Source of the DNA: Patescibacteria group bacterium
Lineage (GTDB): Bacteria > Patescibacteriota > Patescibacteriia > UM-FILTER-42-10
Assembly (NCBI GenBank): GCA_041666485.1
Contig: JBAYGW010000004.1
Coordinates: forward strand, 10,341-74,340
Direction of reading: 5' to 3'
DNA: 64,000 bases
The notes below the pieces were generated by a model. It did no database searches. It worked only from the letters and a program-made list of their open reading frames with translations, and had not been told where the DNA came from. A program made the position numbers and the translations under genes. Each line of letters opens with the position of its first letter. The stretch's first letter is position 1. This document shows positions 1,497 to 15,206 of the stretch, piece by piece.

Positions 1497-1854
1497 TTAC
1501 TGTCATCTTCGGACTCGATCCGGAGATCCACAAGAATAATGGATTCCTGGATCGTCTACAGTGTAGACGTCCGAGAATGACAACGCTATTGACACCATTA
1601 ACATGTCATGCTATCATACAATCTCAAGTATTTAATGGTTTTATAGTAGCACTTCAGAAAGTAATACAGACACACAATTAATGCGTGTTGTTGCGAAGAT
1701 CAGGCAAACAGAAACCAAAACAGTATCAGTTTTTCTAAGAATGAGTTAATAACGTTATTGAATCCAACCCAAGTAATACAGCGGTTATCAGGATAAAAAA
1801 CGTCACTCGTCGGAAGTTAATTGGGACCCTTTAAATGAGGGTTTTTTGATTTGG

Positions 1855-1900
1855 TATTAATAGGGGTTAGGGTTTAGGATATAGGGATTAGGGTATTGGT
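1855..1900. repeat. G-rich TTAGGG/TAGGAT-like degenerate repeat tract (copy 2)
   Basis: ggtattaataggggttagggtttaggatatagggattagggtattggtaaat shares aggatat(a)ggga..ttagggatt..gtaaat with 293-322. Confidence 0.5.
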
Positions 1901-1911
1901 AAATAACAGCA

Positions 1912-2040
1912 CCCATTGCGAGGAATTCTGTTTTAGCAGAATGACGAAGCAATCCCGATGCTTAATGCATTGGTAATTAAACTTCGTATCGCGTGGGGTT
2001 TATAGAGTTAATCGGGAACCGCCTAAAAAGGCGGTTTTCT
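1912..2040 (+). repeat. Structured intergenic element X, copy 1 (candidate small RNA or repeat), ending in a hairpin/T-run
   Basis: The core is cCATTGCgagg-[ttctg ttttag cagaa]-tgacgaaGCAATcccgatgcttaa, then ggggtttatagag, then aaccgcctaaaaaggcggttttctt. The core is shared with 7490-7545. The outer stem ATTGC/GCAAT is conserved, and the inner hairpin differs between copies but keeps complementarity. Confidence 0.5.
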
Positions 2041-2050
2041 TGATTATATT

Positions 2051-2641
2051 TTGTTTAAGAGCTATTGTGAATGTATAATAAGTAATTTTAATAATGTGCC
2101 TACAAAAAATATTTGGTCGTTGAATATTGATGAATTACTTGTAGCGGATAGACTGAAAAGTCTTTTCAATAAATCAAAATATGAGGTCCTGTTTCCACTA
2201 AATTCTCAAATGAAGGATATTGATTTAGTGCTATTAAAATTGAAAAATAATTCTGTCGCAACAATCCAGGTAAAAGGAAGTAGAACATATGATCCAAAAC
2301 GTGCGGAAGTAGAAAAATATGGAGAAGGATCGGTAGCTTGGTTTAGATTAACAAAGGAATCAATTAATATTCCAACTAATAAGATTGATTACTATATTTT
2401 TGTTTTACATTGCTTTAATGATAATGAACATAAAAAAGAAATAGTCATTAATTATTTAATAGTTCCAAGTAACCAATTTATATCTTTATGTAAGAAAAAG
2501 ACCTTAAGAAAGGGCGGAATTTATCACTTTTTTGTTTGGGTTGATTCTAATCACAATCGTGCGTTTGATTATAATAATAAAGGTAATAAGATTATTAATT
2601 TATCAAAGTATTTAAATAATTGGGAATTAATAAAATATTAA
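2051..2641 (+). CDS. Hypothetical protein, possible PD-(D/E)xK nuclease fold (AT-rich cassette gene 1)
   Basis: 196-aa ORF in ~28% GC DNA. The start is uncertain (TTG 2051, GTG 2093 or ATG 2209). The motif order NIDELLVADRL (helix with Glu) ... KYEVLFP ... KDIDLVLLK ... VATIQVKGS resembles the E...D...(E/Q)xK core of Hjc/restriction-endonuclease-like folds. No other recognisable family. Confidence 0.4.
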   Translation: MFKSYCECIISNFNNVPTKNIWSLNIDELLVADRLKSLFNKSKYEVLFPLNSQMKDIDLVLLKLKNNSVATIQVKGSRTYDPKRAEVEKYGEGSVAWFRLTKESINIPTNKIDYYIFVLHCFNDNEHKKEIVINYLIVPSNQFISLCKKKTLRKGGIYHFFVWVDSNHNRAFDYNNKGNKIINLSKYLNNWELIKY

Positions 2642-2655
2642 TTACTAATATTATT

Positions 2656-3462
2656 ATGCCCAAAATTCTTCATTTTGAAGACGACAAAGTTCTGTCTGAT
2701 ATGTTTGCGATTAAATTTAAGCAAGTTGGATTTGAATATGTAAATTATGAAAGTCCAACTGATAATCCTGTTGATTTAATTAAGAAAGAAAATCCAGATT
2801 TGATTATCATGGATATAATTATGCCGATAATGAATGGTTTTACGGCAACAAAATTAATAATGGCAGATAGATCAATAAACACTATTCCGATTATTGGTCT
2901 TACTAATATGAATCAGGATACTGATGTAAATAAGGGGCTAGGTCTGGGCATGAAAGATTATATGATTAAAGCATCTTTTACTCCGTCACAGATGATTCAG
3001 AAAATTGGGAAGATACTGAATATCGAAGTAAAGATCGAAGAAGTGCATTTTCCTCCGATTAAACCAAATTATTCTATACCGTCTATCCAAGATGATTCGC
3101 CGCATGAGAAAAAAGAGCCGGATCATAAAAAACTATACATTACGCTCAGTATCATAGCAGTAATAATATTAGCAGCTATTCTACCACCTTTTATGATGCC
3201 AAAAGTAAAAAGCGGCATTGTGATTTCTGATAAAGTCAGAAATGAGATATTACTGGCGGTTGATACACATTTTGATCATCCCGCGGAACGGTTGCTGGTG
3301 CTACGTTACCAAATTACAGAAAAATCAGAATGGCGGGGAGCAGATCGGTATTTTGTCTCAGGAATAACAATATTTGGTATAAAGTTTAACATGGCAGATG
3401 TTTATGTAGATGGTGGGATTATTAATATCCCAAGCCTGGAGAACGACATAATTACTAATTAA
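2656..3462 (+). CDS. Response-regulator receiver (REC) domain protein with an internal TM helix and a C-terminal ~85-aa domain (AT-rich cassette gene 2)
   Basis: N-terminus MPKILHFEDDKVLSDMF...NPDLIIMDIIMPIMNGF...IPIIGLT...K is a CheY-like receiver: acidic pair, acceptor Asp in IIMD, conserved Thr and Lys. Followed by the TM helix LYITLSIIAVIILAAILPPFMM and a non-REC C-terminal domain. ATG 2656 is preferred over in-frame TTG 2620, which overlaps the upstream gene. Confidence 0.6.
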   Translation: MPKILHFEDDKVLSDMFAIKFKQVGFEYVNYESPTDNPVDLIKKENPDLIIMDIIMPIMNGFTATKLIMADRSINTIPIIGLTNMNQDTDVNKGLGLGMKDYMIKASFTPSQMIQKIGKILNIEVKIEEVHFPPIKPNYSIPSIQDDSPHEKKEPDHKKLYITLSIIAVIILAAILPPFMMPKVKSGIVISDKVRNEILLAVDTHFDHPAERLLVLRYQITEKSEWRGADRYFVSGITIFGIKFNMADVYVDGGIINIPSLENDIITN

Positions 3463-3469
3463 ATATACA

Positions 3470-3772
3470 ATGGCTGCAGACCCGGAAATAGTTAATGCTA
3501 CAAAAATTTTAACATCTACTGTCGCACGTATACTTATACCATTTATAATCATTATTGGTATTATTGTAGCCGGTATTACTTACTTTAAGATAAAACTATT
3601 TAAGAAGGTTGATGAAATAAAGAAGCGAAAGAAGGATAGCAAAAATAATCATTCTTCTGAATTAAATTGCCCCCTTTGTGGAAATGCACTGGTAGAACGT
3701 TCGGGCAAATTTGGCAGTTTTTATGGTTGTTCAATTTATCCGAAATGTAAATATACAAAGAATATTGGATAA
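3470..3772 (+). CDS. Membrane-anchored topoisomerase-type C4 zinc-finger protein (AT-rich cassette gene 3)
   Basis: 100 aa. TM helix ILIPFIIIIGIIVAGITYF followed by a K/R-rich stretch (positive-inside). C-terminus CPLCGNALVERSGKFGSFYGCSIYPKCKYT is the CxxC...CxxC zf-C4_Topoisom pattern. Confidence 0.6.
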   Translation: MAADPEIVNATKILTSTVARILIPFIIIIGIIVAGITYFKIKLFKKVDEIKKRKKDSKNNHSSELNCPLCGNALVERSGKFGSFYGCSIYPKCKYTKNIG

Positions 3773-3792
3773 ATACACTTTAATATGGAGTA

Positions 3793-3870
3793 ACGGGATT
3801 ACTTCGTCGTCCCACCAAATAGTACTCCTCATAATGGGCACTGTTTTTTTATTCACTCAATGCTATAATG
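3793..3870 (+). promoter_or_regulatory. Repeat element Y, copy 1: ACGGGATT box plus conserved promoter-like module ending in TATAAT
   Basis: acgggattacttcgtcgtcccacc...cataATGGGcaCTGTTTTTTTATtCaCTCAATGcTATAAT (TATAAT at 3864-3869) is ~36/41 identical to 7783-7825. It lies 32 nt upstream of the PIF1 helicase ATG. Confidence 0.5.
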
Positions 3871-3901
3871 CCTCCACAGAGAATTAGCATTAAAAACAGT
3901 A

Positions 3902-5227
3902 ATGAAGCAATCGGAAGCGCTGGATATATTGAAAATGGGACACAATGTGTTTCTGACAGGATTTGCCGGCAGCGGCAAAACTTTTTTGTTAAACAAATAT
4001 ATTGAATACCTGAAAGGTAACAATGTAGAAGTAGGCGTAACCGCGTCTACCGGCATTGCGGCCACCCATATGGAAGGCCGGACGATTCATTCGTGGGCGG
4101 GAATGGGGATTAATGACAAAATGACGAAGACGGAGATTAAGAAGATTTTGAAGAAACCGCATCTGCGGAAGCGGATTGCCAATGCGAGGGTTTTGATTAT
4201 AGATGAAATATCCATGCTTGGCCACCGGCAACTGGATCTGGCGGATCAAATCTGCCGGATCGGAAAAGAGCAGGATCTGCCGTTCGGCGGGATGCAGGTG
4301 ATCCTTTCGGGCGATTTCTTTCAACTGCCTCCGATTAACAGAGCTTCCAATGAGGAGCAGAATAAATTTGCTACCGAGTCTGCTGTTTGGCAGGAAATGG
4401 AACTGAAAATTTGTTATCTGGACGAGCAGTTTCGTCAGTCGGATCAGTTATTTACAAAAATTTTAAATGAGATCCGGGATGACCGCGTGACCGCGGATAC
4501 GATCAGCACTCTGATGACCCGCCTGAATATTGAGGTCGCACCGGATGTGATCCCTACCAAGTTGAATACCCACAATGCTGATGTGGACAGCATTAATGAG
4601 CGGGAACTTGCTAAGATTCAGAGCAAAGAAGTTCTGTTTGAGATGAATGCGACCGGTTCTCCCGAGATTGTAAAAATTTTAAAGAAGGGGTGTCTCGCAC
4701 CGGAGGAGATAATATTAAAACAAGGCGCGGTAGTGATGTTTGTAAAAAATAATTTCAACAAAGGATACGTAAACGGGACACTTGGGACTGTAGTAGGTTT
4801 TGATCCGGAAAAGGGGTGGCCGGTGGTGGAGATCCGCTCGGGAAAAAGAATCCTCGCCGAGCCGGAAAGTTGGGGGATTGAAGAAGAGGGAAAAGTAATC
4901 GCGGAAGTGGACCAGGTACCCCTGCGTTTAGCGTGGGCGATCAGCGTGCATAAAAGCCAGGGGATGAGTTTGGAAACCGCGGAGATTGACCTGAGCCGGG
5001 CTTTTGAACGCGGGATGGGTTATGTTGCTTTGTCCCGCGTGCGGACTCTGGACGGCATAAAGCTGACCGGTTTGAATAATATGGCGCTTTCTGTGAACAA
5101 AGATGTGGTGGGGCTGAATAGGGAATTTATCATCCGTTCGCAAATGGATTCGGACCAACTGAAGGGGTTCGGTAAAAAGCGGGTACACAAAATGCAGAAG
5201 GATTTTATAAACGAGGCGCGGGGATAA
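3902..5227 (+). CDS. PIF1-family 5'-3' DNA helicase (RecD/Pif1 superfamily 1)
   Basis: Walker A GFAGSGKT and Walker B LIIDEISML. Pif1 signature GDFFQLPPI. C-terminal motif AISVHKSQGMSLETAEIDL. Confidence 0.85.
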   Translation: MKQSEALDILKMGHNVFLTGFAGSGKTFLLNKYIEYLKGNNVEVGVTASTGIAATHMEGRTIHSWAGMGINDKMTKTEIKKILKKPHLRKRIANARVLIIDEISMLGHRQLDLADQICRIGKEQDLPFGGMQVILSGDFFQLPPINRASNEEQNKFATESAVWQEMELKICYLDEQFRQSDQLFTKILNEIRDDRVTADTISTLMTRLNIEVAPDVIPTKLNTHNADVDSINERELAKIQSKEVLFEMNATGSPEIVKILKKGCLAPEEIILKQGAVVMFVKNNFNKGYVNGTLGTVVGFDPEKGWPVVEIRSGKRILAEPESWGIEEEGKVIAEVDQVPLRLAWAISVHKSQGMSLETAEIDLSRAFERGMGYVALSRVRTLDGIKLTGLNNMALSVNKDVVGLNREFIIRSQMDSDQLKGFGKKRVHKMQKDFINEARG

Positions 5228-5420
5228 ACAACGGTGGATCTCCGGACCAAGTCCGAAGATGACAATTGCTTATTAATTTGTCATTCCCGCGCAGGCGGAA
5301 ATCCAGAAAGGTGACACGGCGGCGTGCCACCCCCTTCTTATTTATGGGTAGGGTTTTTTATTTCTTATTCAAATGGTATAATAACAATTACCAATTTATT
5401 CAATTATTAATCTCAAAAAC

Positions 5421-5987
5421 ATGAAAAAAAATGAAGCTGCCAGAATATATGATGTCAGCAAAAATGAAAGACGACAAGGAGAAATACAGCCTATTCTTCC
5501 GGTAGAAGAACCGGAAGATCCTGATATACTGCCGTCCGCCAAGATGACGTCTATGAATGAATTTGAGCTAGCAGAACAACAGCTCAAAGCTGAAGAAAAG
5601 CGCCAAAAAGAATTGGCGGTTCTGCGCGCTAATATGGCTAATTTTATCAATGAAGCTGGAACGACTGTGATTAATTTTGATAAACCGGGAACTGTACCCG
5701 ATGAAAATTTTGAAGATACTGAAGAGATGGGCCGGATTAATGAAATATTCGGGGTTATTGAACAAAGCGGTTTGGATCAGAGAACAATTGATCTACTGTA
5801 CGAAACTATGGAGAATCTGATTATTGCCATTACACCGGAGCAAATTGACCAGGAAAGAATAGATCAGATAATTGAAGTGATTGAAGCTAGCGAATTAGAG
5901 TCCACTCGTAAGCAAGATTTAATCCTGGAGCTGAAAAACATGATCGCGACAGCAATAATGGATATGGACGATGATGCGGTGGCATAA
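5421..5987 (+). CDS. Hypothetical acidic protein
   Basis: 188-aa ORF, Glu/Asp-rich, with no recognisable motif. Clean start following a T-rich hairpin region after the helicase gene. Confidence 0.5.
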   Translation: MKKNEAARIYDVSKNERRQGEIQPILPVEEPEDPDILPSAKMTSMNEFELAEQQLKAEEKRQKELAVLRANMANFINEAGTTVINFDKPGTVPDENFEDTEEMGRINEIFGVIEQSGLDQRTIDLLYETMENLIIAITPEQIDQERIDQIIEVIEASELESTRKQDLILELKNMIATAIMDMDDDAVA

Positions 5988-6007
5988 ATAATCCACTATA
6001 TAAAATT

Positions 6008-6649
6008 ATGCGTAAAATTCTATTGGCCTCGCGGGGTACTTATGTAACGGACGGAAAGTACGATCTTTTTGATAAACCCCGCAAAGAAATAAAATGGGCT
6101 TACATTACGACAGCCGGAAAAAGCGTGCCGAGAGTTGAATATATTAAAAAACATGAACAGCGGATGCGCGAGCTCGGCTGGGATTTTGAGGAAATTGATA
6201 TTGACGGAAAAACCCCGGATCAGTTAAGGAAAATTTTAGCGGATAAGGATGCAATTAATATGCTGGGCGGCAATTCCTTTTTTCTGATCAAATGCATCAG
6301 AGAAAGCGGATTCAAAGCAGTACTGGAAGAATTTCTAGACAGAGGAGGGGTATATTGCGGTTCCAGCGCCGGGTCATATGTTGCGTGCCCCAGTATGGAA
6401 ATGGCAACCTGGAAAAAACCCGCCAAATTTGACCGCCACGGCGTTACTGATTTTACCGGGATGAATCTGGTGCCGTTTCTGATTGTTGCGCACTGCACGC
6501 CGGAAATTGTTGCAATGGTTAAACCATATGTTGAACAGTCAAAATACGAAGTAAAATTATTAAATGATCAGCAGGCGATTCAGATAAATGGGGATCAGAT
6601 AGAATTTTTGGAAGATCTGGAAATACGATCTAAAGATTTCGGAGGATAA
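6008..6649 (+). CDS. Peptidase S51 family (dipeptidase E-like)
   Basis: GGNSFFL and the nucleophile motif GSSAGS, plus a downstream His (VAHC), match the PepE/cyanophycinase-like S51 layout. Confidence 0.7.
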   Translation: MRKILLASRGTYVTDGKYDLFDKPRKEIKWAYITTAGKSVPRVEYIKKHEQRMRELGWDFEEIDIDGKTPDQLRKILADKDAINMLGGNSFFLIKCIRESGFKAVLEEFLDRGGVYCGSSAGSYVACPSMEMATWKKPAKFDRHGVTDFTGMNLVPFLIVAHCTPEIVAMVKPYVEQSKYEVKLLNDQQAIQINGDQIEFLEDLEIRSKDFGG

Positions 6650-6652
6650 ATT

Positions 6653-7057
6653 ATGACAGACAATAAAGAACCGGAATTAAATCCCTATGACAATGAAGCC
6701 CGCGAGCGGTGGGGTAATACGCAGTTTTATCAGCAGTCCCAAAAGCGTGTAAAAGCGCTGGGAGAGGACGGGTTGGGGGAGGTTATCAGGAAAAGTCAGG
6801 AGCTAATTCAGAAAATTGCCGGTGCGATGAAAAAGGGAAAAACGGCTCAAAGTGAGGCCGTGCAAAAATTAATTGACCGTCATTATAACGCGCTCAATGC
6901 CTTCTATGATCCGACTTTGGGACTATATCGCGGACTGGCTGAAACATATATCAGCGACGAGAGATTTAAGGAAAATTATGAAAAAGTGGCGGTTGGACTG
7001 GCCCAATTTATGCATGATGCCATGATTTATTATGTTGATACAAAGGAAACTGAATGA
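6653..7057 (+). CDS. TipAS antibiotic-recognition domain protein (stand-alone, no MerR HTH)
   Basis: RBS ggagga. [20 protein letters not shown]...[34 protein letters not shown] matches the TipAS-domain signature (ERWG.T..Y..S). Confidence 0.7.
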
Positions 7058-7470
7058 AAGAACTGCAACATATTGAAATAGTATTGAGAGCAATTATTGT
7101 TTTTAATGATAAACTTTTAATGTGCGTTTTACATGATCAACCACCGATTCATTTTTTGCCCGGCGGGCATTTGGAATTCGGTGAAACCTTGGAAGATTGC
7201 CTAAGAAGGGAGATTAAAGAAGAAATGGGTGTTGAAATAAAATCAATGGAATTTTTGAAACAATTTGAAAATATTTATGATGTGCATGGAATAAAACATC
7301 ACGAAATAAATTTGGTACATAAAGTTTCATTAAGCATAGAAAACACGGAAGAAGTAAAAGCACAAGAGGATCATATTTCATTTACTTGGGTTGAAATTGA
7401 AAAGATGAAGGACGTTAAAATGCTGCCGCCAGTGATACATCAATACTTGGTAGAATATTTTTCCAAGTAA
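7054..7470 (+). CDS. NUDIX hydrolase
   Basis: Nudix box [24 protein letters not shown] (Gx5Ex7REUxEExGU). ATGA start overlaps the upstream stop. Confidence 0.8.
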
Positions 7471-7489
7471 TCACAGAACAATTACAGTA

Positions 7490-7606
7490 ACCATTGCGAG
7501 CCCATAAATATGGGCGAAGCAATCCCGATACTTACACCATGAGGGTTTTATAGACGGGATTACCACGCCCCCTGTTTAGAGTCAAAGCGAGCCAGTGTTT
7601 TTTTAA
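7490..7606 (+). repeat. Structured element X, copy 2, followed by an ACGGGATT box
   Basis: aCCATTGCGAG-[cccat aaat atggg]-CGAAGCAATCCCGATaCTTAca...gggttttatagACGGGATTaccacgcc...gagccagtgttttttt. The inner hairpin differs from copy 1 (ttctg/cagaa versus cccat/atggg) but still pairs. Confidence 0.5.
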
Positions 7607-7699
7607 GAGAAGCCTTCGATTCCGCTCCGCTGCACTCAGGCAATATCCCATGAGAATATTTGGTGAGCCTGTCGAATCATACTTGAAAAGAGGTATGGA

Positions 7700-7716
7700 A
7701 CGGGATTGCCACGTCT
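7700..7716 (+). repeat. ACGGGATTRYCACGYC box (third occurrence)
   Basis: acgggattgccacgtct. The consensus occurrences are 3793, 7554, 7700 and 7756 (cgggattgtcacgtc). Confidence 0.45.
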
Positions 7717-7755
7717 TGCGTTCGCAAGTCTCGCAATGGTTACTATCATTCTGTC

Positions 7756-7826
7756 CGGGATTGTCACGTCCCGCTTTGCGTGATTCACAATGGGTGCTGT
7801 TTTTTTATCCTCTCAATGATATAATT
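7756..7826 (+). promoter_or_regulatory. Repeat element Y, copy 2: ACGGGATT box plus conserved promoter-like module. Its TATAAT sits 6 nt before the YgjP ATG, so the transcript is possibly leaderless
   Basis: cgggattgtcacgtcccgctttgcgtgattcacAATGGGtgCTGTTTTTTTATcCtCTCAATGaTATAAT with TATAAT at 7820-7825. ATG at 7832. Confidence 0.5.
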
Positions 7827-7831
7827 CGTGC

Positions 7832-8401
7832 ATGCAAAAGATAATTACTATTGATAATCAGGCACTGACCTACACCGTGCGGAAAAGCCTGCGGGCCAGA
7901 AGTATGCGCCTCGCGGTGCACAGCGACGGCACAGTGGTGGTGACCATGCCTTTCCGGTTTCCCGGCAGTCTGGCGGATAAATTTGTACATGAGAAATATG
8001 ACTGGATTATTCGGAAGATTGCATATTTCAAACAAAGCAAAAAACCCGCATCACGGGTATATACCAAAAAAGATTATTTGAAATACCGGGAAGCCGCAAA
8101 GAAATTTGCACTGGAGCGAGTGGAGCATTTTAATGCAACATATAATTTTACGTATAATCGGATAAGTATCCGCAACCAAAAAACAAGATGGGGGAGTTGT
8201 TCCGGGAAAGGCAATCTGAATTTCAATTATAAAATAATCCATTTACCTTTGCGGATTGCCGACTATATTATTGTCCACGAGTTGTGCCATTTGAAGCAAA
8301 TGAATCATTCTAAAAATTTCTGGGATTTAGTGGGAGTATTCTTTTCGGACCACAAGGCAATCAGAAAAGAATTAAAGCGGTTGAGTATTGATCTGGGCTA
8401 G
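7832..8401 (+). CDS. YgjP-like metal-dependent hydrolase (DUF45 / M48-like, HExxH)
   Basis: WGSCSGKGNLNFNYKIIHLP...IIVHELCHLKQMNHSKNFWDLV is the DUF45/YgjP signature. Confidence 0.8.
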   Translation: MQKIITIDNQALTYTVRKSLRARSMRLAVHSDGTVVVTMPFRFPGSLADKFVHEKYDWIIRKIAYFKQSKKPASRVYTKKDYLKYREAAKKFALERVEHFNATYNFTYNRISIRNQKTRWGSCSGKGNLNFNYKIIHLPLRIADYIIVHELCHLKQMNHSKNFWDLVGVFFSDHKAIRKELKRLSIDLG

Positions 8402-8455: not shown

Positions 8456-9019
8456 ATGAATGAAAGTATAAAATATCCGCATGCAGCGGAAGAAGGAGTA
8501 ACCCCGGAAATGGATCAGGCCCGAAAACTGGGGTTATTAGAACCTATGGAGGATACGCTGGAATGGTTGGATATTAAGGCAGATATTCATCTCAAATACA
8601 ATGACAAAAAAGCCAGACAGCTAGAAGAGCAAACGCAATCTGATTATTTAATTGCAAAAGAAAAGGATGATGTGGGTAATTTGCAGGATCCGCATGAGAG
8701 ACCAAATCTTGAATCAAAATTTGCTATTGATACAGGACTGGTGGAAGCAAGAAGGTTGCGTGAAGCAAATAACACAATGGAAAAAGAAATCGCCGACATG
8801 CTTCTAGGTCATGATTTTGAACAGTTTCGCACACCAAACCAAGCACAATTACAGGCTATTCGTGAAGCACTTCACGTCGCCTATCAGCAAGATCCAGAGA
8901 TCAATGATCGGATAAAGGCGAAAGAACGCATCAGAGAAATTATTGCATTAGAAAAACAGTTAGCTGAATTGCTTGTAATTTTTGGACAAGAGGTGCAGGA
9001 TGTTGTCAGTAGACAATAA
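8456..9019 (+). CDS. Hypothetical protein
   Basis: 187-aa ORF with host-like composition and no recognisable motif. Confidence 0.45.
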   Translation: MNESIKYPHAAEEGVTPEMDQARKLGLLEPMEDTLEWLDIKADIHLKYNDKKARQLEEQTQSDYLIAKEKDDVGNLQDPHERPNLESKFAIDTGLVEARRLREANNTMEKEIADMLLGHDFEQFRTPNQAQLQAIREALHVAYQQDPEINDRIKAKERIREIIALEKQLAELLVIFGQEVQDVVSRQ

Positions 9020-9222: not shown

Positions 9223-10125
9223 CTATTCCAAACGCTCTTGGAGCGGGTCAAAGTCCGAGTAGAGCGCGAGCAGGAAATCAATCATGTCGGCTCCGAAATC
9301 CTCGTCGGATACGGCGTACTGCTCAATCGTGAGCATGTTGGCGCTCACAACCAAGTCGGTTCCGTAGAAGCCGACATCAAGCGGAGATTCAATCGGAACG
9401 CATTTGCGTATCCGATCTTCGTCATCGGTCAACGGACCCATCGTGTAGGCGTAGGGTTCATGACCTTCCGCAACGGTGATCTGCTGGCGCTGCAAAGCGC
9501 TTTCGCGAGTGGCGGCGAGCCACTTCCCTTCGGTCATCTCGTTGATGATCATGAACACCGCATGGTGTGCCTCGTACTCCTCAAGGAGCCACGGGTCGGA
9601 AAGCGGTTCCGTAACCGTTCCCTCTTCGTCGTAGTCGTTCTCCGTGCAGTCCCGGGCGTGGACGATTTCATGTGCGAGGCAGAGCCCGCGCACGAGCTGT
9701 CCGAAACCGCAGGTTGTGAGCTTCACCGAACGCGATTCGCAGAAGAATTCCGCGAAAATCGCATCTTCCTCCCGAAGGAGCGGAATCGGATTCGGATCCG
9801 CCACGATGAAGAAGTCTAGCGGACTGTCCAGTGTTTCCACCACCTCAAAGAGCTGGGAATCAACGAACTTCGCACGCACGGCATGCGCGTCGTAGAACTC
9901 CAGGAGCTCCTTGGCGGTTGCCGACTGCTCGGCGAGTGCCGCGAGGTCTTCCCGCGCCGTGTCAAGAATCCGGTTCTCGGGCTCGGTCAGCACAGGTAGA
10001 GCCAGTGCGGAGGAGACGGGCTCCTCCTGAGACTGAGCAGGGACACAGTAGGCGAAGGCGCACAGGGTGGGAATGAGGGACAGGTACAAAGCGACCTTAT
10101 GCCACGTACGCATGAGCGGTTCCAT
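9223..10125 (-). CDS. Secreted protein with HExxH...E zinc-binding-like motif (putative metalloprotein/peptidase), high-GC island
   Basis: Signal peptide MRTWHKVALYLSLIPTLCAFAYCVPAQSQ. Motifs CLAHEIVHARDC and, ~30 aa downstream, LLEEYEAHH. Codon usage is ~60% GC, unlike the flanks. The overlapping plus-strand ORFs are antisense artefacts. Confidence 0.55.
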   Translation of the reverse strand: MEPLMRTWHKVALYLSLIPTLCAFAYCVPAQSQEEPVSSALALPVLTEPENRILDTAREDLAALAEQSATAKELLEFYDAHAVRAKFVDSQLFEVVETLDSPLDFFIVADPNPIPLLREEDAIFAEFFCESRSVKLTTCGFGQLVRGLCLAHEIVHARDCTENDYDEEGTVTEPLSDPWLLEEYEAHHAVFMIINEMTEGKWLAATRESALQRQQITVAEGHEPYAYTMGPLTDDEDRIRKCVPIESPLDVGFYGTDLVVSANMLTIEQYAVSDEDFGADMIDFLLALYSDFDPLQERLE

Positions 10126-10390
10126 CCTTTCGGGTCTTCCTAGTCTTTTCTTTGGTTGCTGTGTGAAAATTGTGCCTGTACTACGATCCTCGGTCAGAAA
10201 CCTGCAAATCTCCTTTCAACAGGAATTCTGACTACACTGTATAACATGATATTATATTTTTGTCCAGAGTGGTTAAAGATAATTAATCATTCGCGAATTA
10301 AAAATGTATATAAATCTTGCAAAAAACTGCTGTTATGCTAGGGTTGCGATAGTCGTGAGTTATTTGATGCCTGCAGAAAGGACGGATGCT

Positions 10391-10612
10391 ATGAGTCATC
10401 GGTTCACTCCAGCCCGCCTCAACGAGGTATTGGTTGCTGCCAATGCTTCGCGCCAGCCGGAAGCGGTTGAAGCGACAACTCTGCTGCGGGACTTCATGGA
10501 GCGCGAAGATCTGATCGGCTCCGATGAAACCGACCGGCATGTGCATGTGCCGGAAGACCTGGTCGGCATCATTGAATACCCCTGGAACGGGCATTCCCAG
10601 TCGGCTCTCTAG
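10391..10612 (+). CDS. Small hypothetical protein (start uncertain)
   Basis: gaaaggacggatgctATG gives an RBS-like sequence. Followed by two hairpins and a T-run (10619-10668). It competes with antisense ORF 10298-10642, which has no such signals. Confidence 0.3.
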   Translation: MSHRFTPARLNEVLVAANASRQPEAVEATTLLRDFMEREDLIGSDETDRHVHVPEDLVGIIEYPWNGHSQSAL

Positions 10613-10641
10613 TACATCTGCGGTTCCCAGAAACCGCGCCA

Positions 10642-10668
10642 CTCTTTCCTGACTGAAAGAGTTTTTTA
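10642..10668 (+). terminator. Intrinsic terminator
   Basis: ctctttc-ctgactg-aaagag followed by ttttttattt. Preceded by a second hairpin, gcggtt-cccagaa-accgc. Confidence 0.5.
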
Positions 10669-10688
10669 TTTAAAACATTATGACAATT

Positions 10689-10726
10689 AAAAAAATCGAG
10701 GGTGAGTCCGGATGGGCTCACTCTCG
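10689..10726 (-). terminator. Intrinsic terminator for minus-strand gene 10802-11344
   Basis: aaaaaaaTCGAGGGTGAGTCCggaTGGGCTCACTCTCG forms a 12-bp stem with a T-run on the minus strand. It shares the AAAAAAATCGAGGG.GAG head with the terminator at 13003. Confidence 0.55.
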
Positions 10727-10801
10727 GGTTAAAGGAATGATCAGATGATGAAAAGCAGAAGGTGTGGTGCAACAGTGGACGCGCGGGATCGCGGGTCAGG
10801 A

Positions 10802-11344
10802 TCAGAGGTCGATGCGCTCAGTCGGAGCGTCACCGCCCTGATCGTCCGCAGCGGGAGCAGTCGCCTCCATGGCCTGCCCGGTCTCGGCACCAGCGGCAGC
10901 CTGGTCGCCGGCCGCGACAACGGCCGGGTCCACCTCGGGAGCGGCGTTGACATCCGCAGCGGCGGCCACGACGGGAGCCTCCACGCTGGCGGCAGCGAGC
11001 GGGGTCGCATCCGTCCCATCCTCGTCACCGAGCTGGGGATTGCCGACGGTTGCGGCGGCCTGATGCTCGGCGTGAGCCTCGTCCTCGTCCTCGGGCACGT
11101 CCTCCCAGGGCACGTCCTCGGGGATCAGCAGGGTGCCGATCATGAGGTCGCCTTCGGCGATGAGGTCGTAGAGACCGACTTTGGCCACCGTCGGCTCCCC
11201 CTCGTCGGACAGGCCGAGGATCACGATCAGGTGCTGGTTCTCGTCGTACTGGATCCCTCTCGCCTTGAGGGTCTCCAGGACGGGGGTGCCTTCCTCCCCC
11301 TCGAACAGCGGATGGAGACGGAGGCAGGGTTTTGTTCTTGACAT
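10802..11344 (-). CDS. Hypothetical acidic protein with an Ala/Asp/Glu-rich low-complexity C-terminus
   Basis: RBS AAGGAG lies 8 nt before ATG (MSRTKPCLRLHPLFEGEEG...). The ordered N-domain (...HLIVILGLSDEGEPTVAKVGLYDLIAEGDLMIGTLLIPEDVPWEDV) is weakly reminiscent of DUF1292-type small acidic proteins. The overlapping 198-aa plus-strand ORF is rejected. Confidence 0.5.
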   Translation of the reverse strand: MSRTKPCLRLHPLFEGEEGTPVLETLKARGIQYDENQHLIVILGLSDEGEPTVAKVGLYDLIAEGDLMIGTLLIPEDVPWEDVPEDEDEAHAEHQAAATVGNPQLGDEDGTDATPLAAASVEAPVVAAAADVNAAPEVDPAVVAAGDQAAAGAETGQAMEATAPAADDQGGDAPTERIDL

Positions 11345-11490
11345 CGCACACACTCCTTCTTGGGAACGGGACCATAATTTGCCGACGGCTTATCCGCCAG
11401 CAGCGAACATGTCAGATGTTATCACGCCTTTTTGTCTATGTCAAAATGCCTTTCAAACTGTGGATTTACAGACGGCTGCTAATCCTTTAT

Positions 11491-11508
11491 GCGGTTTTTG
11501 AAAACCGC
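11491..11508. promoter_or_regulatory. Perfect inverted repeat GCGGTTTT-tg-AAAACCGC in a divergent intergenic region (candidate operator)
   Basis: gcggtttttgaaaaccgc has 8-bp arms and a 2-nt spacer. It lies between the start of the minus gene at 11344 and the promoter of the plus gene at 11578. Confidence 0.4.
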
Positions 11509-11577
11509 AATTAATTTATTCTCACTGAGGAGAGTTTATTTATTGCAAAAAAATAAAATAATGCTTTGTATTTATAG

Positions 11578-11606
11578 TTGACATTCTATAATCATGGGTG
11601 TTAAAT
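11578..11606 (+). promoter_or_regulatory. Sigma70-like promoter for gene 11660
   Basis: TTGACA (11578-11583), then a 17-nt spacer, then tgTTAAAT with an extended-10 TG. RBS aaaggggg lies 8 nt before ATG 11660. Confidence 0.45.
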
Positions 11607-11659
11607 GGGCATGAAAACCAAAACACGAAACCGTTGCTCTTTGAAAGGGGGTGACCACC

Positions 11660-12085
11660 ATGCTAGCAGTCTTTCAAATTGAACCGGGCGCATTGTTCGG
11701 GATAATACTAGTGGCTGTAATAGCAGCAATCGGAATTTGGGTACAAGTTGATGCTGCTACTGCAAAAACCCGGCAAGAAGAGGAATTCAAAGAACAAAGG
11801 AGATTAGCAAAAGAGAAAAAAAATCAGGAATACAGAGAGGGGTCGGCTCGCGAGGAACAATCAGATGAGGAAAGGTACAGGCAAAAACAAGTAAGCGATG
11901 AAGAACGTGATCGGGAAATGCGACCAATACTGGAAGCTGCTATAGCAAGAGGGGAAAAGGTTTGTTGGACACATTATATTGTTGGTGTCCAATATTGCAA
12001 TAGGGGGTGTGGTCGTTGTCTTTGTCTCGAAGGTGGCCCAATGTGTGATCAGTGTTGGTTTGATGATCATGACGACGATGACTAG
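11660..12085 (+). CDS. Small membrane-anchored protein with a charged linker and a Cys-rich, poly-Asp C-terminus
   Basis: TM helix FGIILVAVIAAIGIW. Linker QEEEFKEQRRLAKEKK...DEERDRE. Tail CWTHYIVGVQYCNRGCGRCLCLEGGPMCDQCWFDDHDDDD with 8 Cys in 31 aa. Confidence 0.5.
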   Translation: MLAVFQIEPGALFGIILVAVIAAIGIWVQVDAATAKTRQEEEFKEQRRLAKEKKNQEYREGSAREEQSDEERYRQKQVSDEERDREMRPILEAAIARGEKVCWTHYIVGVQYCNRGCGRCLCLEGGPMCDQCWFDDHDDDD

Positions 12086-12173
12086 TTCGTTCAAGACTCT
12101 TTAGTTTAGAGTCTTTTTTATCGAATTGTTAATTATATTTCACCTGAATAATAAATTGTGCTACGATTAAGCT

Positions 12174-12905
12174 ATGAATTTAGCAGAGAAATTGGAGTTG
12201 TACTTCTTTGACCCAATGAGAGGGGAGGAGGACTATTTTAAACGGTTCAAAGAGTGCACCGATATTCAGATTTCCTACGCGCCGCTGTATTTATTACGCC
12301 GGCAGATATTATTGTTGACCGGCAAACTGATTACATTTCCCAACCCGCCCATTCATCAGATTCCGTATTTTTCCGCCATTCTCCTGGCACACATTGCGGT
12401 AAAAAAAATGACTATGCTGTCCAGCGGTCAGGACTACGTTAAGTACGGCGATTATATTTTGTTTTATGATAAATACATGGGCATGAAGCCGCTGGATTAT
12501 GTGGCGGCCAGACTTCTGCGTAATGGAATAGAACACAATAATTTCCAGTTGTATATGCGTCTGAAAGCGGACAGCGCACCAATGTTCCGCGAGTTCGCCC
12601 GATATTTTATTAATAATAAAATTATGACCCGTGAGCAGCTGAGGTCTATGCGCAATTTTAACGTAACGTTTGCGATGGTGGAAACAGGTCACACTGGCGC
12701 GATTGTTTCTCCACCGGAACTGTTAAAATTTGATCCGGAGCTGGGTATCGCACGGATCCAGTTCTATATTCAGCCATATCTATTTTTGGAAGCATTTGAA
12801 AAGGGGGTGCAGAAAGTGGAACAAGATATCCGTGATTCAAAAGAATTGAAAGAGAATTTTGACCGTGCTGTGATTGAAGCAAACTGGATGGATGTGCATC
12901 CGTAA
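12174..12905 (+). CDS. Hypothetical protein
   Basis: 243-aa ORF, ~42% GC, with no recognisable motif. Confidence 0.45.
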   Translation: MNLAEKLELYFFDPMRGEEDYFKRFKECTDIQISYAPLYLLRRQILLLTGKLITFPNPPIHQIPYFSAILLAHIAVKKMTMLSSGQDYVKYGDYILFYDKYMGMKPLDYVAARLLRNGIEHNNFQLYMRLKADSAPMFREFARYFINNKIMTREQLRSMRNFNVTFAMVETGHTGAIVSPPELLKFDPELGIARIQFYIQPYLFLEAFEKGVQKVEQDIRDSKELKENFDRAVIEANWMDVHP

Positions 12906-13002
12906 TCGGTACTTAAAAAGTGTAATTAGTAATTGGTAACTGGTAATTCGTAATCTCTAATATTCATCTGAATTGATGTGTGTTTTTGTTTTAGGAAAAT
13001 AA

Positions 13003-13054
13003 AAAAAATCGAGGGGGAGAGAACAATGCTTGCGCAATGTTTCTCCCGCCTCGG
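13003..13054 (-). terminator. Intrinsic terminator for the OMP/lipoprotein operon (minus strand)
   Basis: aaaaaaaaTCGAGGGGGAGagaacaatgcttgcgcaatgtttCTCCCGCCTCG is a long imperfect hairpin with a T8 run on the minus strand, immediately downstream of the stop at 13092. Confidence 0.5.
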
Positions 13055-13091
13055 GGTGACCCCGCTAAGCGGGATCTAGGAACGACTAGTG

Positions 13092-15197
13092 CTATTCGGC
13101 CGGATTGTACGTGGTACTTTCCAGACGAACGACGGGGATTTCATCGTAGGCTGAGGGGACTTCGTAGCATCCCATCAGCTTCTGCATGTACACCCAGCCG
13201 GTGCACTTGTTGGCGTCGCCGGTCCAGACGATACGAATCTCCTGGATATTCTCAAGATCGGCTTCACCGAAGTCCACCAGCAGGTAGGCCGGACGCTGCG
13301 GGTACAGATCCGGGATCGTCCAGTAACGAACGGAGCCGTTAGTGTACCGGAACTCCATGATCGTGTCCTCGTGCTGGAGGACATCAAACTTGAACAGTCC
13401 CCACATCCGCTGCCAGTAGGGGTGACCGGTCGTCACGAACGCGCAGTCCGTGAGATCGCCCGGTCCCACCTTGAAGTCGTTGATGTCAACTTCCCAGCAG
13501 ATGGTCTCCGGATCCGAAGCGGACCGGACGCGGATGTTGATTTCGCGTTGCTGAACTTCGCCGGTGACGTTGTCCGTCACCTCAACGTAGAACAGGTGAT
13601 TACCCGCGTTCAGCTCAGGATACTCGCAGACCGGGGTGGTCGCGAACGGAAACTGCTCCAGGTAACCCCACTTCACCGAGTTATCGCCGGAGCCACCCTG
13701 GATGATCACCTGGAGGCTCGCGGTCACAGGTTCCACTTCGTCCTGCGGACTGCCGAAGATCTGGGTGGTCATCGGCGGGTACTGCAGTGCTTTCACGCGG
13801 ATGGCGACGTCCTCGTTCAGAACGAGACCGGTGACGTTGTCCGTCACCTGCACGTGGAACACGTGTACGCCGGCCATCAGACCCATCACTTCAACTGCCG
13901 GAGTGGTGCCGACGACGACGTTACTGTCGTTGGTCCACTCGTAGCTGAAGTCGCCCGAACCGTTATTCACGGTCACCAGCATATTGCCGTTCACCGGCTC
14001 GGTCTCGTCCTGCGGGGTAACGAAGGTTGTGATACCCATCGGGATGATGGGATCGTCCTCGCGGGGCAGAGCGGTGACGGTAACGGTTTGCTGTCTCACC
14101 TGGCCGGTTGCGTCGGTGACGGTGGCCTGGAAACAGCGGGTGCCGGGCTGGGTGATACTGAGACGCACACTGCGTGTGGTTGCGAAGACGTTGCCGTTCT
14201 CGCTCCACACGTGCACGAAGGGGTAGATCCCTCCGAACTCGTGCATGGTCAGCGTGGTCTCAAACGAAACCGGGATCCCACTCGTGGAAGCAGTCGCATC
14301 CATGTCGAGCGGAGTCGGATCGTCCGTGTCCACATACACCGTCAAGTCCTGGAAGGTGGAGCCGTTGCCGGTGCCATCGTCCAAGAAAACGGTAAAGGTA
14401 TGTGTGCCGTCGGGGAGATTCGGGTATGCGGCGAACAGACTCTGCGAGAACATAACGCCCTCGTAGAACCACCGGTAATGGTAGTTTCCGTCACCGCCGG
14501 ACCCGTGCGCTTCCAGATAGGCTTTGTCGCCGATCGCGAAGCCGAAGGCATCCAGCGTCAGAGCGTGGAGTTCCCCAGGAGCGCCGGCACAGATGGTACG
14601 GTTGAAGGTGACTTCGTTGCCGTCGGCATCGGTGATCGTGCCGACCACTGCGTAGTTTCCCGGCTGTTCGGCCCGGAACCGGATGGACGGTTCGGTGTAC
14701 ACCGCACCGTTCACGATGATGTCAAACGAGTAGGGCAGTTTCCCACCCCAGCCGATGAGCGAGATTGACGCTTCGTAAGGCGCCATCAGGTCGTTCGGTG
14801 TGACGATCATCATACCCTGAAGCGGGCTGTCGGTTTCCACTTCCTGCTCGCTGGCCGTGACGGTCAGCTCGCGGGAGATGGTGGTGTCCGGGTAGACGAC
14901 CTTGAGCTCGAAGCTCCAGGAGCCGGGTTCGGGCGCCGTGAACACAGTGTCCGTTCCGGTAGCGTAGAACTGCCCATCCTTGTAGATTGCGACGTGTTCC
15001 GGATCGCCAAGCACGGTTCCCCAGAGGGTAGCCGTATCGACGTAGGGCCGAAACAGGTTGAGCGGTGAGGCGTTGAACGTCGCGCCGAATTCCGGAAGCA
15101 CAGGTGCCTGCGGCGCCACCAGATCAGCCTCGCTCTCGCAACCAGCGAGTACGAGGCCGAAGGCGCAGATCGCAAGCAAAGCGATGATTCTCTTCAT
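13092..15197 (-). CDS. Large lipoprotein with repeated Ig-like/PKD-like beta-sandwich domains (high-GC island)
   Basis: RBS AGGAGG lies 6 nt before ATG. Lipoprotein signal MKRIIALLAICAFGLVLAGC (lipobox LAGC). Internal repeats are visible, e.g. FVTPQDETEPVNGNMLVTVNNGSGDFSYEW and FGSPQDEVEPVTASLQVIIQGGSGDNSVKW. The 465-aa antisense ORF 13371-14768 is rejected. Confidence 0.7.
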   Translation of the reverse strand: MKRIIALLAICAFGLVLAGCESEADLVAPQAPVLPEFGATFNASPLNLFRPYVDTATLWGTVLGDPEHVAIYKDGQFYATGTDTVFTAPEPGSWSFELKVVYPDTTISRELTVTASEQEVETDSPLQGMMIVTPNDLMAPYEASISLIGWGGKLPYSFDIIVNGAVYTEPSIRFRAEQPGNYAVVGTITDADGNEVTFNRTICAGAPGELHALTLDAFGFAIGDKAYLEAHGSGGDGNYHYRWFYEGVMFSQSLFAAYPNLPDGTHTFTVFLDDGTGNGSTFQDLTVYVDTDDPTPLDMDATASTSGIPVSFETTLTMHEFGGIYPFVHVWSENGNVFATTRSVRLSITQPGTRCFQATVTDATGQVRQQTVTVTALPREDDPIIPMGITTFVTPQDETEPVNGNMLVTVNNGSGDFSYEWTNDSNVVVGTTPAVEVMGLMAGVHVFHVQVTDNVTGLVLNEDVAIRVKALQYPPMTTQIFGSPQDEVEPVTASLQVIIQGGSGDNSVKWGYLEQFPFATTPVCEYPELNAGNHLFYVEVTDNVTGEVQQREINIRVRSASDPETICWEVDINDFKVGPGDLTDCAFVTTGHPYWQRMWGLFKFDVLQHEDTIMEFRYTNGSVRYWTIPDLYPQRPAYLLVDFGEADLENIQEIRIVWTGDANKCTGWVYMQKLMGCYEVPSAYDEIPVVRLESTTYNPAE

Positions 15198-15206
15198 CTT
15201 GACCTC

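Follow-up and report, generated by a model that had tools for sequence, protein, structure and literature searches.

Element X, a two-tier hairpin repeat of Patescibacteria and other bacterial phyla, and its probable relation to Ssn-recognised DNA repeats

The closest described systems are the NTS hairpin repeats of Neisseria, which have the consensus CGTCATTCCCGCGMAVGCGGGAATCYRG and include dRS3, and the 94-aa single-domain GIY-YIG protein SsnA, which binds the NTS and cuts a few nucleotides upstream of it (Chenal et al., 2025, Nat Commun; PMC11893778). SsnA works on single-stranded DNA (ssDNA) only; double-stranded DNA, RNA and the reverse strand are not substrates (PMC11893778). Binding depends critically on the C that comes directly after the palindrome, and cleavage on the three bases 5' of it; the identity of the loop is dispensable, and longer loops are tolerated (PMC11893778). 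Ssn homologues exist by the thousands, flanked by 'Ssn-related motifs' (SRM) with the published search sequence HGTCWYN(0-2)YYVSBRHN(0-5)WNVSBRGN(0-2)RNCYNB, and Patescibacteria are not mentioned in the text of that paper (PMC11893778). Here, we describe element X, a short hairpin repeat present in several copies in 64,000 nucleotides of a Patescibacteria genome (assembly GCA_041666485.1, contig JBAYGW010000004.1, positions 10,341 to 74,340; this whole stretch is called the window). Element X probably belongs with the NTS, dRS3 and SRM, i.e. with hairpin repeats that function at the level of DNA and are recognised by Ssn, a small single-domain GIY-YIG nuclease. Read in this way, it adds a new structural variant to the Ssn-related hairpin repeats and widens their host range; in all likelihood, it is no small RNA.

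Element X beside the NTS and SRM hairpins

The resemblance to the NTS, dRS3 and SRM begins with the frame. As an oriented repeat, element X has its hairpin in the setting CATT-palindrome-AATCC, and in all window copies a C stands directly 3' of the palindrome. It is also multi-copy, clustered, intergenic and present in both orientations, and it takes part in repeat-gene-repeat arrangements around ssn-type genes. Moreover, canonical SRM and near-NTS copies occur in the same window. The SRM regular expression has two matches there and no others, against 0.24 in shuffled sequence, and another hairpin agrees with the Neisseria NTS consensus at 26/28 positions, the preceding base counted (Table 1). 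This near-NTS (5280-5306) stands head-to-head with an SRM-type hairpin (5234-5264), in a Patescibacteria genome. The differences concern architecture and hosts. The NTS forms a single 8-9-bp stem with a short loop, whereas the foot palindrome of element X has 5 bp and is followed by an internal loop (GAG/CGWR) and a nested top hairpin, and the hosts of X include Patescibacteria, Dehalococcoidia, Omnitrophota and others. The combination of a conserved foot with a free top agrees with the tolerance of the NTS towards changes in its loop (PMC11893778).

A search of both strands shows six copies of element X in the window, five of them full and one partial, in both orientations (c1 to c6, Table 1). 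They are confined to 1.9-7.8 kb, with none in the remaining 56 kb, and occupy four spacers between genes in the range 1.5-7.8 kb. The common layout is a conserved foot, CCATTGCGAG...CG(A/T)(A/G)GCAATCCCG, around a top hairpin that is unlike in each copy but keeps its self-complementarity. The exact foot pattern with a gap of 6-36 nt occurs three times in the window (c1, c2 and c4), where approximately 1e-5 occurrences are expected by chance (64 kb x 2 strands x 31 gap lengths / 4^19). With up to one mismatch allowed, GCAATCCCG has 29 matches in the window versus 12.9 +/- 3.8 in shuffles. The cleanest two-tier hairpin belongs to c2, with the top CCCAT-AAAT-ATGGG and a z score of -3.3 when folded as DNA. 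Copy c1 folds convincingly as well (z -2.1); its top reads ATTCTG-TTTTAG-CAGAAT with GA/GA at its sides, and its extended head ACAGCAC and tail ATGCTTA are common to other Patescibacteria copies. The DNA fold of c4 is modest. In the degenerate copy c6, the foot ATTAT/GTAAT contains one compensated and one wobble pair below a weak top, and the head of c3, ACAGCAC, points right and touches a T7 run. The partial copy c5 lies tail-to-tail with c2, the two GCAATCC motifs being approximately 31 nt apart, which is consistent with the median tail-to-tail gap of the family (27 nt); a T-run on the plus strand comes after c5.

A first-pass annotation made from the letters of the window had described two of these copies, c1 and c2, with an outer stem ATTGC/GCAAT and inner hairpins of different sequence that are each self-complementary. 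All of this is borne out. The annotation had further regarded the element as twice-occurring and co-directional with downstream genes, and neither statement holds, because one strand only had been read: there are five to six copies, of which 2 run in the sense of the genes and 3-4 are antisense. The motif GGGkTTTATAGA (GGGKTTTATAGA) said to be shared by both sites is indeed present at each of them (Table 1), and of the hairpin with T-run said to follow both copies, c1 has the hairpin and the T-run (2014-2039), and c2 a T-run at approximately 7598-7605.

Spread, folding and covariation of element X

An exact scan for CCATTGCGAG-N6-36-CGWRGCAATCCCG in one genome per species revealed 93 genome loci in more than 15 phyla, compared to a chance expectation of approximately 2 matches. 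Hosts are Dehalococcoidia and other Chloroflexota, Alphaproteobacteria, Patescibacteria, Nitrospirota and Leptospira, and also Omnitrophota, Bacteroidota, Acidobacteriota, Elusimicrobiota, Gemmatimonadota and others. A scan of metagenomes added 31 further loci, and among six matches in viral contigs five were chance matches within coding sequence, leaving one true copy (locus L003). Altogether, 313 X-like copies were counted in approximately 0.9 Mb of retrieved DNA. Their interiors vary from copy to copy, yet almost always form a hairpin, and the copies measure 20-59 nt from CATT to ATCC, with a median of 34 nt. The triplet preceding CATT is most often YGT, which gives GTCATTGCGAG; GT stands before CATT in 138/313 copies, and GTCATT is the commonest 5' context outside the seeded copies. 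The subtype of the window (ACAGTAACCATT or ACAGCACCCATT, tail GCAATCCCGWT) was found again in metagenome-assembled genomes of Patescibacteria. One and the same foot sequence persists across more than 15 phyla beside unrelated genes, and within one genome the tops are unrelated to one another, while feet and flanks are near identical. Midpoints of X fall within open reading frames (ORFs) in 60% of cases versus 91% of the background, as judged by a six-frame ORF mask that is a poor stand-in for 'intergenic' where genomes are GC-rich. No match to element X was obtained in Rfam 15, neither at gathering nor at relaxed (E <= 10) thresholds, and the literal strings CATTGCGAG and GCAATCC matched only primers in the literature.

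Neighbouring copies are arranged as tail-to-tail doublets in 75 cases, head-to-head in 25 and in tandem in 32. In one array (locus L106, 1393-2048), X(+) and X(-) alternate over 12 copies with a period of 112 nt, as do two types of top, and the whole is BIME-like. Element X resembles the repetitive extragenic palindromic (REP) sequences and their BIME and REPIN arrangements, which are likewise short imperfect intergenic palindromes with an inverted doublet as unit and alternating arrays. In contrast to the lineage-specific REPs, X keeps its foot sequence from phylum to phylum.

As a set, the tops fold better than shuffled sequence. For 139 tops of at least 13 nt, the mean minimum free energy was -6.27 kcal/mol compared to -3.44 kcal/mol in shuffles (Wilcoxon p = 4e-17), and the helix of 98/139 tops reaches to within 2 nt of either end. 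Covariation was analysed in 109 distinct copies, cut to the foot and the outer seven positions of each top side; this trimming was imposed by us to make tops of unequal length comparable. The top positions are paired in 77.3% of cells versus 63.7% in shuffles, a value that 0/500 shuffles reached, and the covariation score is 0.276 versus 0.095 shuffled (again 0/500), with 0.05-0.13 for slid partners. Double changes were seen at all seven top pairs. The foot helix hardly varies and is paired to 99%. When three foot positions per arm were left free, TGC/GCA was kept in 136/144 copies, and the rare foot variants are mostly compensated, such as TAC/GTA, found twice, and TAT/GTA in c6. The covariation argument of the first-pass annotation thus holds for the top hairpin, as does its structural inference, the inner hairpin changing in sequence but not in complementarity; the foot is conserved as sequence.

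Genuine covariation in the top could be taken as support for a structured RNA, i.e. a small RNA or cis-regulatory leader with hairpins selected at the RNA level, all the more as the copies are intergenic and c1 and c2 have the same direction as their downstream genes. However, covariation is equally expected of an ssDNA hairpin. Most of the window copies (3-4 of 5-6) are antisense to the flanking genes, the genes downstream share no class, and the same short element recurs in more than 15 phyla beside unrelated genes. Furthermore, the linked protein family described below acts on ssDNA and shows no RNA binding (PMC11893778).

The top loops point in the same direction. On the strand with CATTGCGAG, they are biased to GNA (GAA 17, GCA 9, GGA 6, GTA 4) and also comprise G..A tetraloops, and none of the complementary TNC forms is among the 25 commonest top loops. 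GNA triloops, in particular in the context cGNAg, are classic loops of hyperstable DNA mini-hairpins. The presence of both orientations, the inverted doublets and alternating arrays, this loop bias and the missing Rfam match at either threshold together lead away from a strand-specific RNA gene or leader, and we consider a structured RNA very unlikely. Of the identities that had been proposed at first pass, the structured mobile repeat fits the data, and a small RNA or riboswitch-like element is unsupported.

Linkage to Ssn-type GIY-YIG genes

Genes for GIY-YIG proteins were searched by tblastn with generic GIY-YIG sequences and then confirmed with Pfam; a crude GIY...YIG regular expression had failed to detect them. 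In 0.93 Mb of X-seeded loci, all nine distinct small GIY-YIG genes thus found are situated within 180 bp of a hairpin. Eight of them adjoin element X (L013, L051, L054, L079, L095, L100, L126 and L127) and come from Patescibacteria, Dehalococcoidia and Methylocella, and the ninth (L045) has on both sides another hairpin of the GTCATT...AATCC type, GTCATTCCGG...CCGGAATCC. Several loci have the layout X(+)-gene-X(-), for example L126 with X(+) at 918-952, the gene at 969-1241 and X(-) at 1267-1308. The linkage is also seen in the reverse direction, since the four homologues of the L079 protein that were looked up (P0109, P0005, P0008 and P0014) are all encoded within 260 bp of X-type hairpins. 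At L141, the hairpins read acagtaaCCATTGCGAA...GCAATCCCG and ...CTCGCAATGGGTGC, which is exactly the Patescibacteria subtype of the window.

The X-linked proteins have 85-116 aa, with PF01541 as the sole strong Pfam domain (E = 1e-11 to 1e-16). NCBIfam and PADLOC offered no informative family for the GIY-YIG proteins, and a sequence search of the PDB returned only UPF0213 GIY-YIG structures. For a closer comparison, we used a 94-aa GIY-YIG ORF of N. gonorrhoeae within locus L144 (a segment of NZ_CP119140.1, 1881087-1883741); this ORF carries Y6, Y17 and E64, the residues mutated by Chenal et al. (PMC11893778), and lies amid 16 NTS copies in 2.6 kb; on these grounds it is taken as the SsnA orthologue. 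Eight of nine compared proteins, seven of the eight X-linked ones among them, are 40-54% identical to it over the full length. The highest value (54%) belongs to the L045 protein with the other hairpin type. The X-linked proteins reach 40-51% (pairwise E 1e-21 to 1e-33), except for that of L054 with only 30%. By this homology, the partners of X probably fall into the Ssn clade (cd10448), the homologues of N. meningitidis SsnA. As a side observation, NZ_CP119140.1 (a 2.17-Mb chromosome) and NZ_CP119142.1 are N. gonorrhoeae chromosomes that are filed as plasmids in PLSDB.

This partner sets element X apart from the REP systems. In E. coli and Pseudomonas, REP/BIME/REPIN hairpins are read as ssDNA by a dedicated nuclease whose gene the repeats flank, as is predicted for X, but the nuclease there is an HUH Y1 transposase and not a GIY-YIG protein. 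A mobilisation of X by such a RAYT, i.e. an IS200/IS605-like Y1 HUH transposase, would fit the imperfect palindrome, the REPIN-like inverted doublets and the BIME-like arrays, and one X-bearing Patescibacteria contig does contain an ORF for an IS200-like Y1 transposase (L081, 2114-2713, minus strand; PF01797, E = 5e-12). However, this ORF is 4.8 kb away from the X copies and not flanked by them, and no other Y1 gene turned up in the loci, in which no dedicated search for such genes was made. RAYT-associated REPs reportedly carry a typical tetranucleotide GT[AG]G on the 5' side of the palindrome, which is absent from X, as is the GTAG of the REPs. Given that the gene consistently adjacent to X encodes a GIY-YIG protein, we regard a REP/REPIN-type element driven by a RAYT as highly improbable.

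If the likeness to the Neisseria system extends to function, the strand with CATTGCGAG...GCAATCC would fold into a two-tier hairpin once it becomes single-stranded, be it during replication, DNA uptake or cruciform extrusion. The foot would make the 5-bp stem ATTGC/GCAAT, above which the conserved non-Watson-Crick internal loop GAG / CG(A/T)(A/G) would follow. The top hairpin would stabilise the fold and be free to vary, as it need only pair. The unpaired flanks would lend the element its polarity, with (G/C)(T/C)C at the 5' side and a C as the first base 3' of the palindrome. Foot, internal loop and flanks would be read by a cognate Ssn, whose gene would lie elsewhere in the genome and which, by analogy with SsnA, would nick a few nucleotides 5' of the foot. 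An inverted pair in which both heads point outward, X(+)...X(-), would mark off a unit consisting of an empty doublet, an ssn gene or other cargo. Such units would be gained and lost between related genomes and may spread by transposition-like mobilisation or by recombination between repeats.

Several observations weigh against the assignment to the Ssn-recognised repeats and deserve mention. The published SRM search motif is matched by 0/313 X-like copies. The bases 5' of the foot are ACC or CCC in the window copies where the NTS has GTC, and these are the three positions found most critical for cleavage (PMC11893778). No GIY-YIG protein was detected in the window plus 6 kb upstream by a six-frame search with a 120-homologue HMM (best E = 0.23; 70 kb in total, the upstream part taken from locus L007, which is 100% identical to the window), and we therefore infer the cognate enzyme for these copies; their host belongs to the Patescibacteria, from which most of the X-linked Ssn loci also come, and its adenosylhomocysteinase is 89-97% identical to 'Patescibacteria group bacterium' proteins and 77% to one of Kerfeldbacteria. 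That the foot is so well conserved is in part a circular result, as the foot itself was used to gather the copies, and the free-position test released only three positions per arm. Wobble pairs show no strand bias (35 vs 35), and the case for folding of a particular strand therefore rests on the loop bias and on analogy. Copies c3 and c6 are decayed and fold poorly as DNA. Finally, each copy in minus orientation has a T-run after it, and a side function as terminator at the RNA level is possible.

The Ssn/NTS system was described only in 2025, and its published search motif misses element X. The present assignment links GTCATTGCGAG...GCAATCC, which is among the most widespread short repeats of environmental bacterial genomes, to nucleases of the Ssn family, extends the Ssn system to Patescibacteria and gives its hairpins a modular anatomy of conserved foot and free top. 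It also calls for caution in annotation, as covariation alone is no ground to call a small RNA or riboswitch. The repeat GTCATTGCGAG...GCAATCC is also a frequent origin of spurious small ORFs.

X-bounded insertions and further features of the window

The window was compared with two genomes from the same samples with the same gene order, L146 (approximately 80-86% nucleotide identity) and L147 (approximately 75-80%). Window positions 1584-1894 and 3845-5232 are contiguous in both of them (5733/5739 in L146, 4048/4054 in L147), so that the window contains a 1,950-bp insertion relative to both, with the outward heads ACAGCACCCATTGCGAG... of c1 and ...CTCATAATGGGCACTGT of c6 at its ends (Table 1). 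Its cargo consists of three ORFs. The first (2051-2641) encodes 196 aa without a family match, the second (2620-3462) a protein with a receiver domain and a C-terminal half that is apparently membrane-spanning, as judged from its sequence, and the third (3470-3772) a 100-aa protein with a Top1-type zinc ribbon (Pfam). PADLOC and NCBIfam gave no informative match for the cargo proteins. With a GC content of 0.24-0.36 compared to 0.42-0.53 in the flanks, the insertion is compositionally foreign.

Table 1. Element X copies, related hairpins, insertions and repeats in the window (positions counted from its first letter; strand '.' for features without orientation).
Feature	Position	Strand	Description
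X copy c1	1906..1965, core 1913-1957	+	CCATTGCGAG-GAATTCTGTTTTAGCAGAATGA-CGAAGCAATCCCG
X copy c6	3794..3844, copy 3794-3837	-	degenerate; head ACAGTGC pointing right
X copy c2	7484..7535, core 7491-7527	+	CCATTGCGAG-CCCATAAATATGGG-CGAAGCAATCCCG
X copy c5	7555..7597	-	partial copy, recognisable only as 3' half (CGTGGTAATCCCG)
X copy c4	7701..7739	-	canonical, CCATTGCGAG-ACTTGCGAACGCAAGA-CGTGGCAATCCCG
X copy c3	7756..7800, copy 7756-7793	-	degenerate; foot ATTGT/ACAAT (compensated change)
Spacer motif after c1	1996..2007	+	GGGGTTTATAGA
Counterpart spacer motif, c2/c5 interval	7543-7554	+	GGGTTTTATAGA
Sibling hairpin, SRM-matching	1501..1531	+	TGTCATCTTCGGACTCGATCCGGAGATCCAC (GTCATCTTCGGA...TCCGGAGATCC); repeat I4
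Sibling hairpin, GTCATTC...GAATCC type	1541..1583	-	tail-to-tail with 1501-1531; read from sequence
Second SRM-matching hairpin	5234..5264	-	94% complementary to 1501-1531; repeat I4
Near-canonical NTS	5280..5306	+	GTCATTCCCGCGCAGGCGGAAATCCAG
1,950-bp insertion versus two relatives	1895..3844	.	ends c1 (+) and c6 (-), heads outward
361-bp insertion, NUDIX/YgjP interval	7473..7831	.	c2 (+), c5, c4, c3 (-), T-run, TGaTATAAT promoter-like box
48-nt repeat unit	3829..3876, again 7785-7832	+	D8, 81% identity

A second insertion of 361 bp, with c2 at its left and c3 at its right end, separates the genes for a NUDIX protein and YgjP. The NUDIX stop and the YgjP start overlap (TAATG) in both relatives and are 361 bp apart in the window. 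With both relatives empty at these sites and L146 the nearer of the two to the window, gain in the lineage of the window appears to be the parsimonious explanation, i.e. the copies would bracket recently inserted DNA. The same heads-outward layout X(+)...X(-) also brackets ssn genes, and without cargo it corresponds to the predominant tail-to-tail doublet. The empty site, GGGATTAGGGTGCAGATTTTTTAT, looks like an X(-) without its interior. The relatives are not devoid of the element. L146 has an X copy in the interval between the S51 and NUDIX genes (8516-8556), where L147 has a decayed copy, whereas the window has, between these two genes, a gene for a TipAS-domain protein (6653-7057) that is found in neither relative. 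Two further copies are present in L147 (3579-3616 and 12775-12821). The spacer downstream of PIF1 carries a different hairpin in each of the three genomes.

A 48-nt unit that occurs twice (Table 1) is composed of an X head in reverse complement, a T7 run and the extended -10-like box TCAATGnTATAAT. Each unit closely precedes a start codon, the first that of PIF1 and the second that of YgjP, with the X heads exactly at the junctions of T-run and promoter. The relatives have the same promoter without X. As the second unit is part of the 361-bp insertion, this insertion, having split YgjP from NUDIX, may have given YgjP a promoter of its own. In their ability to bring promoter- or terminator-like signals beside genes, the Correia/NEMIS elements of Neisseria are similar small intergenic repeats. 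They differ from X as miniature inverted-repeat transposable elements of 100-150 bp with terminal inverted repeats and TA duplications, and their sequence is unrelated.

The same junctions raise the question whether the X hairpins are primarily intrinsic terminators or mRNA-stabilising structures, comparable to the RNA-level role of REPs, with the Ssn link being secondary. Each of the minus-oriented copies c3, c5 and c6 is followed by ...CTGTTTTTTT on the sense strand and then by the promoter-like TCAATGnTATAAT, the relatives carry another hairpin with T-run at the same junctions, and the hairpin after c1 (2014-2039) passes a terminator scan. However, c3, c5 and c6 are not called by that scan, their T-run begins 6-8 nt past the X stem and not directly after it, and the plus-oriented copies have no T-run. 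Termination would also leave the non-palindromic flanks, the conservation of the foot across phyla and the linkage to GIY-YIG genes unexplained. We therefore consider a primary role as terminator unlikely. The hairpin at 2014-2039 was also considered as a decayed inverted X copy, which is doubtful, as it belongs to a family of terminator-like hairpins at 51-65, 1815-1845 and 2006-2039 of the window, each with AGTTAATYGGGA before and a T-run after it.

Returning to element X as an Ssn-related DNA repeat, its position at the ends of inserted DNA suggests a more far-reaching idea. X(+)-cargo-X(-) might be a mobile unit, for which the Ssn-type GIY-YIG protein would act as ssDNA-specific mobilising enzyme that nicks 5' of the outward heads, on opposite strands. 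We put this forward as a speculation that is rather doubtful at present. The subterminal hairpins of IS200/IS605 insertion sequences are comparable in so far as ssDNA hairpins near the element ends are served by a small nuclease that cleaves outside the hairpin, as predicted for X. There, one HUH enzyme cuts both ends on the same strand, in contrast to the X(+)...X(-) ends, which are recognisable on opposite strands.

Gene cassettes bounded by hairpin sites also recall integrons. The folded form of an attC site is, like that of element X, a single strand in which the outer boxes are conserved, the centre is unpaired and the terminus varies, and both bound cassettes, here one of three genes. 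The hallmarks of attC are, however, the R''/R' core sites RYYYAAC / GTTRRRY, which X does not have, its feet being ATTGC/GCAAT. The orientations of X are mixed, in contrast to the uniform arrays of integrons, nothing suggests tyrosine-recombinase chemistry, and no integrase was found among that part of the window ORFs which was scanned. Integron-like recombination sites are thus extremely improbable.

If X-bounded segments are indeed mobile units, they would represent a previously unrecognised transposition or cassette-exchange system. In addition to moving from phylum to phylum, such units would serve Patescibacteria as shuttles for accessory genes and for promoter and terminator modules; the hypervariable top could then be a by-product or a determinant of the mobilisation mechanism. 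The filled sites at 1895-3844 and 7473-7831 and the matching empty sites in two relatives make this idea directly testable.

Two further features of the window should be mentioned. Degenerate G-rich repeats resembling TTAGGG/ATAGGG are found at 191-312 and 1864-1900 and in the relatives at approximately 5690-5735 (L146) and 4005-4048 (L147), i.e. close to the left end of the 1,950-bp insertion in the window and just upstream of the PIF1 promoter in the relatives. The region 10000-16000 has a GC content of 0.50-0.60 versus approximately 0.40 elsewhere, contains long ORFs on both strands (13092-15197 on the minus and 13371-14768 on the plus strand) as well as internal 86-nt repeats at 13528 and 13795, and is probably the gene of a large repeat-containing surface protein.

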